NCBI GenBank assembly: GCA_964016885.1
Contig: OZ024752.1
Location: 49,972,001-50,036,000, forward strand
From: Eledone cirrhosa
Taxonomy: Eukaryota
Reading direction: 5' to 3'
Length of the DNA: 64,000 bases
Under the pieces are notes generated by a model. It saw only the letters and a list, made by a program, of their open reading frames with translations, ran no database searches and was not told the origin of the DNA. Positions 6,349-64,000 of this stretch are shown here, one piece after another. Position 1 is the stretch's first letter. Each line of letters opens with the position of its first letter. The position numbers and the translations under genes were made by a program.

Positions 6349-7251
6349 AGGCTAAGGTGGTAGTGTAATAATCTCCCTTTCATGCAATGCCTATGACATG
6401 TGCCTCCGTCAACAATATCCTCAACCATAACAGACTCCTACAGTTCACGATAAACTTTCTCTGTGTAATAAATAACAACAAAAGCTATCGCTACGTTACT
6501 TTGAAATGTATATAAATGTAAGGAATTCACTTAAGTCTTTCACTCTTACAAACAATCTTAGTTTAGTTGAAAGGTCTTCAAAGTACATATGTGTGTATGT
6601 GTGTATATATATATATATATATATAAGGGATATATATATATATATATATATATATATATATATATATATACATATATTGATTAAATCTAGTATAACAAAG
6701 CAGCTTCCCACAATAGGGATATATATATATATATATATATCATCATCATCATCATCATCATCATTTTACGTCCGCTTTTCCCTGCTTGCAAGGGTGGGAC
6801 GGGTCTTAAATATATATATATATATATATATATATTTAAATATATATATATATATATATATATATATATATGTATATACGTATATATATATATATTTATA
6901 TATATATATATATATGTGTGTGTGTGTGTGTATATATATATACATATATAAATATAAATATATAGATAGATAGATGTACATATATATGTATTATATTTAT
7001 ATATATATATAGAAAGATATACATATATGTGTAATAGTGATATATTCATTTTGATACTAAACACTTTTACTTTGTCACCAGTACTGTACAACAAAAGGTT
7101 TCTCTCTCCAAACAAAAGACCGGGTGCATGATGTGGTGTGTGATGTGGTGTGTGATGTGGTGTGTGATGTGGTGTGATTTTACATGGTAGTGAGACATGG
7201 GTAGTGAATGCAGAGGATATGTTAAGCCTGGAGGGAAATGAAGCAACCCTG

Positions 7252-10200
7252 CTGTTAATGTGTACAGTTAATGTACACTGTTAATGTGTACAGTTAATGT
7301 GTACAGTTAATGTTCACTGTTAATGTGTACAGTTAATGTGTACAGTTAATGTACACTGTTAATGTGTACAGTTAATGTACACTGTTAATGTGTACAGTTA
7401 ATGTACACTGTTAATGTGTACAGTTAATGTACACTGTTAATGTGTACAGTTAATGTACACTGTTAATGTGTACAGTTAATGTACACTGTTAATGTGCACA
7501 GTTAATGTACACTGTTAATGTGTACAGTTAATGTTCACTGTTAATGTGTACAGTTAATGTGTACAGTTAATGTACACTGTTAATGTGTACAGTTAATGTG
7601 TACAGTTAATGTACACTGTTAATGTGTACAGTTAATGTGTACTGTTAATGTACACTGTTAATGTGTACAGTTAATGTACACTGTTAATGTGTACAGTTAA
7701 TGTACACTGTTAATGTGCACAGTTAATGTACACTGTTAATGTGTACAGTTAATGTTCACTGTTAATGTGTACAGTTAATGTGTACAGTTAATGTACACTG
7801 TTAATGTGTACAGTTAATGTACACTGTTAATGTACACTGTTAATGTGTACAGTTAATGTGTACTGTTAATGTACACTGTTAATGTGTACAGTTAATGTAC
7901 ACTGTTAATGTGTACAGTTAATGTACACTGTTAATGTGCACAGTTAATGTACACTGTTAATGTGTACAGTTAATGTGTACAGTTAATGTACACTGTTAAT
8001 GTGTACAGCTAATGTGTACAGTTAATGTACACTGTTAATGTGTACAGTTAATGTACACTGTTAATGTGTACAGTTAATGTGTACTGTTAATGTACACTGT
8101 TAATGTGTACAGTTAATGTACACTGTTAATGTGTACAGTTAATGTGTACAGTTAATGTACACTGTTAATGTGTACAGCTAATGTGTACAGTTAATGTACA
8201 CTGTTAATGTGTACAGTTAATGTACACTGTTAATGTGTACAGTTAATGTACACTGTTAATGTGTACAGTTAATGTGTACAGTTAATGTACACTGTTAATG
8301 TGTACAGTTAATGTACACTGTTAATGTGTACAGTTAATGTACACTGTTAATGTGTACAGTTAATGTGTACAGTTAATGTACACTGTTAATGTGTACAGCT
8401 AATGTGTACAGTTAATGTACACTGTTAATGTGTACAGTTAATGTACACTGTTAATGTGTACAGTTAATGTACACTGTTAATGTGTACAGTTAATGTGTAC
8501 AGTTAATGTACACTGTTAATGTGTACAGTTAATGTACACTGTTAATGTGTACAGTTAATGTGTACAGTTAATGTACACTGTTAATGTGTACAGCTAATGT
8601 GTACAGTTAATGTACACTGTTAATGTGTACAGTTAATGTGTACAGTTAATGTACACTGTTAATGTGTACAGTTAATGTACACTGTTAATGTGTACAGTTA
8701 ATGTGTACAGTTAATGTACACTGTTAATGTGTACAGCTAATGTGTACAGTTAATGTACACTGTTAATGTGTACAGTTAATGTACACTGTTAATGTGTACA
8801 GTTAATGTACACTGTTAATGTGTACAGTTAATGTACACTGTTAATGTGTACAGTTAATGTACACTGTTAATGTGTACAGTTAATGTACACTGTTAATGTG
8901 CACAGTTAATGTACACTGTTAATGTGTACAGTTAATGTACACTGTTAATGTGTACAGTTAATGTGTACAGTTAATGTACACTGTTAATGTGTACAGCTAA
9001 TGTGTACAGTTAATGTACACTGTTAATGTGTACAGTTAATGTGTACAGTTAATGTACACTGTTAATGTGTACAGTTAATGTACACTGTTAATGTGTACAG
9101 TTAATGTGTACAGTTAATGTACACTGTTAATGTGTACAGCTAATGTGTACAGTTAATGTACACTGTTAATGTGTACAGTTAATGTGTACAGTTAATGTAC
9201 ACTGTTAATGTGTACAGTTAATGTACACTGTTAATGTGTACAGTTAATGTGTACAGTTAATGTACACTGTTAATGTGTACAGCTAATGTGTACAGTTAAT
9301 GTACACTGTTAATGTGTACAGTTAATGTACACTGTTAATGTGTACAGTTAATGTACACTGTTAATGTGTACAGTTAATGTACACTGTTAATGTGTACAGT
9401 TAATGTACACTGTTAATGTGTACAGTTAATGTACACTGTTAATGTGCACAGTTAATGTACACTGTTAATGTGTACAGTTAATGTACACTGTTAATGTGTA
9501 CAGTTAATGTGTACAGTTAATGTACACTGTTAATGTGTACAGCTAATGTGTACAGTTAATGTACACTGTTAATGTGTACAGTTAATGTGTACAGTTAATG
9601 TACACTGTTAATGTGTACAGTTAATGTACACTGTTAATGTGTACAGTTAATGTGTACAGTTAATGTACACTGTTAATGTGTACAGCTAATGTGTACAGTT
9701 AATGTACACTGTTAATGTGTACAGTTAATGTGTACAGTTAATGTACACTGTTAATGTGTACAGTTAATGTACACTGTTAATGTGTACAGTTAATGTGTAC
9801 AGTTAATGTACACTGTTAATGTGTACAGCTAATGTGTACAGTTAATGTACACTGTTAATGTGTACAGTTAATGTACACTGTTAATGTGTACAGTTAATGT
9901 ACACTGTTAATGTGTACAGTTAATGTACACTGTTAATGTGTACAGTTAATGTACACTGTTAATGTGTACAGTTAATGTACACTGTTAATGTGCACAGTTA
10001 ATGTACACTGTTAATGTGTACAGTTAATGTTCACTGTTAATGTGTACAGTTAATGTGTACAGTTAATGTGTACAGTTAATGTACACTGTTAATGTGTACA
10101 GTTAATGTACACTGTTAATGTACACTGTTAATGTGTACAGTTAATGTGTACTGTTAATGTACACTGTTAATGTGTACAGTTAATGTACACTGTTAATGTG

Positions 10201-63125: not shown

Positions 63126-63212
63126 ACAGTGGCAAAGAATGCTGCAGTTTTAAGAAGATATTGAAGTAATAAACACTTTGAGGAAAAGAAAGAAAAGAAT
63201 CTCTGTAGAAAC

Positions 63213-64000
63213 CACCCAGCCCACACTGTAAAGTGGTCATGTAGGTGTCATGACAAAAAGCACCCAGTCCACACTGTAAAGTGGTCATGTAGGTGTCACA
63301 ACAAAAGTAACCAGTCCACACTGTAAAGTGGTCATGTAGGTGTCACAACAAAAGCAGCCAGCCCACACTGTAAAGTGGTTGTGTAGGTGTCATGACAAAA
63401 AGCACCCAGTCCACATTGTAAAGTGGTCATGTAGGTGTCACAACAAAAAGCACTCAATCCACACTGTAAACTGGTCATGTAGGTGTCACAACAAAAGCAC
63501 CCAGTCTACACTGTAAAGTAGTCATGTAGGTGTCACAACAAAAAACACCCAGTCCACACTGTAAACTGGTCATGTAGGTGTCACAACAAAAAACACCCAG
63601 TCCACACTGTAAACTGGTCATGTAGGTGTCACAACAAAAAGCACCCAGTCCACACTGTGGTCATGTAGGTGTCACAACAAAAAGTACCCAGTCCACACTG
63701 TAAAGTGGTCATGTAGGTGTCACAACAAAAAGCACCCAGTCCACACGGAAAAGTGGTAATGTAGGTGTCACAACAAAAAGCACCCAGTACACACTATAAA
63801 GTGGTCATGTAGGTGTCACAACAAAAAGCACCCAGTCCACACTGTAAAGTGGTTCTGTAGGTGTCACGACAAAAAGCACCCAGTCCACACGGAAAAGTGG
63901 TTGTGTAGGCATCACAACAGAAGTACCCAGTCCACACTGTAAAGTGGTCATGTAGGTGTAACAACAAAAAGCCTCAGTCCACACTGTAAAGTGGTTGTGT
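63213..64000 (+). repeat. ~47-48-bp tandem array (16 or more units, runs off the window) derived from the RTE/SINE 3' UTR
   Basis: Unit CACCCAGTCCACACTGTAAAGTGGTCATGTAGGTGTCACAACAAAAAG matches LINE UTR ~3580-3675 and SINE ~24965-25020. Confidence 0.9.

Follow-up and report, generated by a model that had tools for sequence, protein, structure and literature searches.

Minisatellites derived from transposable elements (TEs) have already been published for human and frog. The subtelomeric minisatellites of Xenopus derive from elements of the classes SINE (short interspersed nuclear element)/tRNA-V, LINE (long interspersed nuclear element)/CR1 and DNA/Kolobok-2, as far as the available text of that report goes (PMC10794172). 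In human, 23% of minisatellites are TE-derived, with multilocus tandem repeats and with LTR12 and L1PA elements that have built-in repeats; according to the accessible portion of the report, the initiation of 94% of the TE-derived cases is unexplained (PMC3389668). Here we describe seven tandem arrays and their parent elements in a 64-kb stretch of DNA from Eledone cirrhosa (C12:49972001-50036000 of a 3.0-Gb assembly, hereafter the window). The window stops 0.38 Mb short of the assembled end of chromosome C12, which measures 50.416 Mb, and about 47% of the window is tandem repeat. Its repeats look like those of an octopod cephalopod. We found no published report on cephalopod minisatellites or TE-derived arrays in the literature searched, where most subscription papers lay outside coverage.

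The seven arrays are transposon-derived minisatellites of normal density for small chromosomes, probably formed in two steps: a two-unit seed, whose nature would differ by family, is acquired within the element, and is then lengthened in place. The data support the origin of the arrays from TEs, lengthening by the host with a small-chromosome and distal bias, and the lack of arrays in the majority of parent-family copies. Most units recur at many sites, likely because a small number of TE families already contain, or readily give rise to, a seed of two units, which the host then lengthens. Arrays were called with Tandem Repeats Finder (TRF); complex arrays have a period of 10 bp or more and three or more units, microsatellite-like arrays being excluded. 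All seven arrays of the original prediction were recovered by TRF at 7252-15623 (period 13/26), 20012-20736 (72), 32631-32710 (13), 34892-35423 (44), 43197-44211 (31), 47207-48186 (61) and 63209-63995 (48). The features of the window are as follows.

7177..7251, plus strand: relic of an RTE-type open reading frame (ORF) upstream of the 26-mer array, with an LHGSETW motif in its translation and a 78% match to the window RTE copy at 57197
7252..15623, plus strand: single-locus 8.4-kb array of 644 13-bp units in nine variants, with 26-bp and higher-order periodicity
15614..15760, plus strand: the RTE-type ORF relic resumes, with an RRLLWYGHVM motif
19996..20736: end of a TTAA miniature inverted-repeat transposable element (MITE), TTAA followed by CCCTTTAGCA, with an array of ten 72-bp units, cut by a SINE at 20738
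21387..21458: array of three 23-bp units, no repeat parent found, absent from the original prediction
32580..32775, minus strand: old SINE-like repeat with an array of six 13-bp units at 32631-32710, the unit loosely parent-like
34875..35586: complete TTAA MITE with an array of twelve 44-bp units at 34892-35423
43163..44354, plus strand: hAT-type MITE with an array of 33 31-bp units at 43197-44211; flanked by the 8-bp target duplication ATCTAGAT (43163, 44347), with terminal inverted repeats of 14 bp (43171, 44333)
47128..48350, plus strand: 3' end of a CR1-like non-LTR (long terminal repeat) retrotransposon with an array of sixteen 61-bp units at 47207-48186; 10-bp inverted repeat arms around the array at 47203-47212 and 48181-48190
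54310..54465: array of four 38-bp units, no repeat parent found, absent from the original prediction
56913..57960, plus strand: array-free RTE-type 3' fragment whose 3' untranslated region (UTR) has two units of about 48 bp; a second copy lies at 2758-3809
63209..64000, plus strand: array of 48-bp units derived from the 3' UTR of RTE, with a total of about 25 units, continuing 408 bp beyond the window and followed by the parent tail

All seven named arrays overlap a dispersed element, and all seven fall under the definition of TE-derived minisatellites given by Ahmed and Liang (overlap of at least one period). The claim that all arrays lie inside mobile elements thus stands for the named ones and not for the other two of the nine filtered arrays, which match no repeat. 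The statement that the seven are unrelated does not hold either: a single TTAA MITE family is the source of two of them, and RTE-type elements are the source of two more. The parent sequence resumes after the 26-, 44-, 31-, 61- and 48-mer arrays, as predicted, and not after the 72-mer array, where the SINE begins at 20738. Per-copy array counts agree that most members of the parent families lack the arrays. Non-tandem TE sequence similar to the unit was found elsewhere, at 19-41 loci, for five of the seven; the 26-mer matches elsewhere solely via junction-spanning hits (8 and 15 loci), and no similar non-tandem TE sequence was found elsewhere for the SINE 13-mer unit.

Short terminal inverted repeats, set between the two copies of an 8-bp target duplication, lead us to place the MITE at 43163-44354 in the hAT superfamily. 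The TTAA MITE, with its TTAA duplication and CCC...GGG ends, is presumably of the piggyBac type. RVT_1 (PF00078) was found in both long copies of the CR1-like family; the clade names CR1 and RTE are ones that we assume from C-terminal motifs. A Pfam search returned nothing on the RTE fragments or on an exon fragment of the window. For the old SINE-like repeat, ARAGORN called no tRNA at any of ten parent loci, and no relevant Rfam match was found.

The window is typical of the known phenomenon. As in Xenopus, many loci have expanded one and the same portion of a dispersed element, with a distal concentration, several element classes including CR1 take part, and the tandem cover is of similar order; unlike in Xenopus, the bias here extends to whole small chromosomes, and a seed anatomy like the one seen here (a stem and chimeric dimers, see below) does not appear in the passages of that report that were covered (PMC10794172). 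The likeness to human, within the accessible portion of the source, lies in hotspots within elements, in initiation that is possibly tied to retrotransposition and followed by local expansion, and in the minority of arrays flanked by direct repeats (PMC3389668).

Array formation is uneven among the families. Arrays of three or more units were found in 8/46 untargeted copies of the TTAA MITE (two of them the window's own) and in 5/30 consecutive copies on chromosome C1, in 11/102 copies of the RTE 3' end, in 9/75 C1 copies of CR1 and in 2/24 copies of the hAT MITE, versus 1/124 copies of the commonest SINE and 0/42 of a tRNA-like SINE. The per-copy rate is 8-17% in the first four families and below 1% in the commonest SINE, and rates differ 20-fold between families. 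In contrast to human Alu arrays, mostly of 2-3 units (PMC3389668), those of the four families have tens of units, and their per-copy rates too are far higher than the Alu figures. Of the seven units, five are found again across the genome. There are 22,453 exact 61-mer junctions versus 7,292 exact left borders, and 10,550 exact matches to one TTAA MITE end; 44-mer arrays occur on many chromosomes, the 60-, 70-, 72- and 85-mers recur too, and units that recur across loci always do so at one fixed position of the parent. Because the same units recur at many loci, the seven arrays are mostly members of multilocus families and not seven independent births. Apart from the units of the window, two other recurrent arrays were seen in the samples, one of 48/58 bp from an apparent second TTAA-type element (L009, L062, L073, L074, L135) and one of 29 bp (L027 and L085).

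The seeds differ between the parents. The RTE 3' UTR holds two 48-bp units in most of the complete copies shown, and the seed of the 48-mer would be this ready-made dimer within the family. The hAT MITE parent has a 10-bp direct repeat with its copies 31 bp apart, for which the predicted GAGGGCC is too short a description; among 24 copies two have arrays, several have deletions at the site, and one deletes exactly the unit. Plain copies of the TTAA MITE are about 200-235 bp long, and the 72-mer and the 44-mer come from its opposite ends. The 44-mer lies between two 20-bp sites identical at 16 positions, an imperfect repeat that is likewise longer than the predicted AAAC. The 44-mer arrays differ in their crossover points, include variants of 54 bp and have majority variants peculiar to each locus, all of which points to repeated local origin between these long direct repeats. 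Direct repeats of 10-20 bp could thus have seeded arrays in both the hAT and the TTAA MITE. The 72-, 60- and 85-mer arrays mostly have one junction (...CATAACAT), whereas the ends of parent copies have T in 50 cases and C in two; the subfamily marker 16A was found in 15/18 arrays versus 27/81 monomers of this group. Since the junction is common to most arrays and subfamily markers are enriched, the seed of the 72-mer group is likely an inherited junction that spread by transposition.

The original prediction had each array with visible borders open and close on a short direct repeat already present in the parent. A repeat of 5-10 bp or more around the unit in the unduplicated parent is present for the hAT 31-mer and the MITE 44-mer; CR1 has 4 bp, and none was found for the 72-mer, the 26-mer and the SINE 13-mer. 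Duplication between short direct repeats, as in the Haber-Louis model (PMC6947457), or mediated by microhomology (PMC13167724) therefore fits the hAT 31-mer, with its 10-bp repeat and reciprocal deletions, and the MITE 44-mer (16/20 bp), and misfits the CR1 61-mer, the 72-mer, the 26-mer and the SINE 13-mer. As in Xmix/Xstir and miDNA4, in the part of the review available (PMC9659126), a monomer is born in a MITE, spreads with it and is then amplified; unlike there, one 220-bp TTAA MITE gives units of 44, 54, 60, 72 and 85 bp from both ends as well as whole-element 162-bp arrays. One such head-to-tail array of a deleted 162-bp MITE, with shared TTAA junctions, lies on C24 (L006:1-1053) and adjoins three more MITE copies.

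The 26-mer is confined to one locus: a 25-bp motif has 201 matches in the genome, and every one of them falls in the window. Its array divides the RTE-type ORF relic, and the reading frame is legible on both sides. The predicted parental direct repeat GTTAATGT is not there, because it occurs once, as an exact match, in 2/19 and twice in 0/19 array-free RTE copies. The SINE 13-mer has a loose likeness to its parent, about 21 bp of which is replaced at the site. We infer that these two arrays are one-off local events in old copies.

The CR1 61-mer is the end of the ORF of the element, with 4 bp of homology at its borders. The unit is bracketed by a perfect 10-bp inverted repeat, the longest in the 330-bp region, and the core of this repeat is the palindromic CATG; as a direct repeat, CATG is one of 138 pairs of 4 bp or more in the same region. 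The 10-bp stem is predicted to fold as an outer helix. Folding of the whole segment is no more stable than that of shuffled sequences (z -1.2 to -1.3), and the single 10-bp helix alone is notable. Among the 75 C1 copies, which were picked by position, the unit is duplicated in 14/50 copies with an intact inner stem versus 0/25 stem-broken copies (P=0.003), in a comparison confounded with subfamily and age and made on copies that are not independent. No report of stem- or template-switch-seeded minisatellites was found in the literature, again with most subscription papers outside coverage.

The parent search for CR1 used the right flank of the 61-mer array as query. In the classification of dimers, which left 5/15 copies unparsed, a derived variant is common to both units in 1/11 dimers, four of the 11 having been chosen for likeness to the window array; the expectation that both units copy one template failed. 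A variant fixed in all units was found at 0/9 position-picked loci, one of which has it in 8/9 units. CR1 monomers differ by 6.0% from the family consensus and the array consensus by 1.2%, the latter figure being partly biased by the query. Since units rarely share variants while monomers diverge by 6.0%, these sequences argue for duplication at or near insertion, in some cases from two templates; in the dimers L356, L370 and L398 the first unit has the haplotype of one subfamily's monomers and the second does not. The seed would then be the stem-bracketed 4-bp site, likely duplicating at or near insertion. As a guess we favour a jump during reverse transcription; the alternatives are conversion acting together with a dimer-bearing master, and ectopic repair synthesis. 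The 61-bp duplication (47131-47300, 48124-48220) places a stop codon nine codons past the junction and changes the last few ORF residues alone; therefore a dimer-bearing CR1 master might still be mobile. We tentatively speculate, and hold it somewhat doubtful, that CR1 makes its own seeds: a 10-bp RNA stem would form around the last 61 nt of the ORF, the reverse transcriptase would jump back at CATG, often onto a second RNA, around a quarter of the stem-intact copies would be born as dimers, and distal recombination would grow these into thousands of arrays.

The second step would be lengthening of the seed in place by unequal exchange or slippage, likely driven by meiotic recombination if the frog precedent applies. 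The 61-mer array of the window repeats a three-unit block, and the 13-mer (26-bp) array carries long higher-order blocks. Long arrays lie preferentially on small chromosomes and in distal arms. The interiors of the big chromosomes (C1-C7) contain 2/37 of the CR1 hits obtained with an array query versus 21/38 of those obtained with a flank query (P=2.5e-6, a result that rests on query-selected hits), and both interior array hits are dimers. Three array-query and three flank-query rows were omitted from this comparison (unplaced or unsized contigs, self, duplicate), and the window's own array hit was kept.

The original prediction placed these arrays in an unusually active region with nesting in TEs above coverage, and neither inference survives comparison with spaced samples of the genome. 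The window has 9 complex arrays in 64 kb, or 1.41 per 10 kb, which equals the interiors of small chromosomes under the same filter (38 in 269.6 kb, 1.41 per 10 kb). Its neighbours have 10 in 80 kb (1.25 per 10 kb), stretches situated 0.4 Mb in from the start of a chromosome 13 in 110 kb (1.18), the interiors of C1-C7 20 in 310 kb (0.65), and four further distal C12 stretches 2 in 40 kb. The Poisson probability of at least nine arrays in the window is 0.55 at the small-chromosome rate and 0.027 at the big-chromosome rate; for arrays of five or more units the window has 1.09 versus 0.85. These counts include 84-bp arrays at L023:2921-4385 and L163:2843-3168, which we take to be C2H2 zinc-finger coding repeats.

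Nesting no greater than expected from TE coverage had been named beforehand as a refuting outcome, and this outcome was obtained. A flank in high-copy repeat was found for 21/53 sampled arrays versus 565/1500 random sites (P=0.77), and a junction-spanning parent for 13/53 arrays versus 226/600 random pseudo-units. Window arrays are flanked by repeat in 4/8 cases with a random library (P=0.54) and 6/8 with the full library (P=0.15), the level at control sites being 46-51%. The library for these tests was a self-BLAST of 0.5-0.8 Mb, in which low-copy elements are missed in both arms; diverged element borders count against arrays, and arrays with a period above 200 or cut at both edges are omitted. 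A both-flanks-in-repeat test (1/53 versus 299/1500) was set aside as biased because MITE arrays start about 15 bp from the element end.

Several observations weigh against formation in two steps with a position bias. Sampling covers about 0.8 Mb of a 3.0-Gb genome, a small part, with a TE library made by self-BLAST of that same sample. The position effect is weak in unbiased samples, which lean in the same direction without reaching significance: 1/21 versus 10/93 copies (P=0.69), 5/30 versus 0/20 for MITE arrays (P=0.07) and 0/19 versus 9/50 for CR1 (P=0.055). The interiors of big chromosomes are equal in tandem DNA by length, in the form of long satellites. Plain slippage as the source of seeds misfits the 72-mer, and also CR1, which uses a 4-bp homology over a 7-bp pair and whose dimer units share nothing. 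The 7-bp homology gave a 27-bp unit at 1 locus versus the 61-bp junction at 43, in a set enriched for the latter. At L029 (C1:20.00-20.01 Mb) a satellite of more than 10 kb is built on the 7-bp homology and not on CATG; its unit of 27-29 bp comes from the CR1 segment that also yields the 61-mer.

An unlikely alternative is the one originally proposed, a host-level, microhomology-primed amplifier that would act on any transposon and be exceptionally active in this part of the genome or in this lineage. Five element classes do yield arrays, and their cover is high: arrays of five or more units above 10 bp make up 15-18% of interior samples after removal of microsatellite-like arrays (95% ranges 7-25% and 6-31%), and unfiltered cover is 22-24%, versus 10.67% in Xenopus tropicalis in the available text (PMC10794172). 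Under the human filter there are 13-43 arrays per Mb, versus 31,472 in the human genome as given in the part of the report accessible, or about 10 per Mb by calculation (PMC3389668). A modest lineage-wide excess is possible, the cover being of the same order as in Xenopus. However, the arrays show no regional excess and no TE enrichment, their rates differ 20-fold between families, and parental direct repeats are absent for 3/7 arrays. What is left of the host-level process is the lengthening of TE-derived arrays in place; seeding is family-specific and partly element-borne, and not general microhomology. It is quite unlikely, too, that arrays simply travel on elements as transposed array-bearing masters with little in-place change. 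The RTE dimer in the parents, the common 72-mer junction with its 16A marker and the low divergence of the CR1 array consensus would agree with this, yet unit numbers run from 2 to more than 60 with locus-specific blocks, duplicated CR1 copies belong to more than one subfamily (L287 is a GG dimer), the 44-mer crossover points differ and the 26-mer has a single locus. Such riding accounts for the seeds and not for the lengths.

Two more explanations concern how whole arrays come to be present. Some CR1 dimers and arrays combine units of two subfamilies (L356, L370, L371, L398), as would be expected if excised circles were amplified by rolling-circle replication and reinserted, a route named in the original prediction, or if arrays were copied between loci by conversion. 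We consider this very unlikely: sharing of unit-variant pairs between loci is not above chance among 41 arrays (31 versus a null of 31.7, with 550/1000 null runs at least as high), arrays lie in register within their parents with target duplications intact, and the 26-mer is confined to one locus; reinsertion of circles finds no support here. That the arrays are assembly artefacts is extremely unlikely because of their structured, locus-specific variant patterns and the intact element borders; thousands of independent loci speak against it as well, and so, weakly, do restriction-site-associated DNA (RAD) reads of two other samples that fall on inner units, where monomer reads can also map. In its favour, no read record among those listed spans the 61-mer stretch. 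A family-specific seed followed by lengthening in place is thus the preferred explanation.

The new-looking detail is in CR1, where the unit is bracketed by a stem and duplicated only with the stem intact, and the dimers look two-template. This element provides a large natural experiment: its copies number thousands, some bearing the duplication and others lacking it, and its subfamilies include ones that have the stem and ones that do not. Therefore the initiation of minisatellites becomes directly testable, and seeding can be separated from expansion.

A coding exon on the minus strand at 53942-54247 resembles a kinesin-2 tail, with a weak PDB match to KIF3A (E=0.24); we presume a likeness to KIF17/OSM-3. 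The arrays of the window may sit in introns of this kinesin-2-tail-like gene. Among the other repeats, a dispersed one that contains a long inverted repeat matches itself on both strands (18333-18437, 42229-42338, 4379-4534), and 25238-25404 consists of two halves of the commonest SINE fused in inverted orientation. Degenerate tandem repeats of 29 bp (45798-46057) and 50 bp (59667-59775) do not pass the filter. Satellites in the genome are very diverse: 10/69 spaced 10-kb samples are 95-100% tandem repeat, and the unit is different in each.

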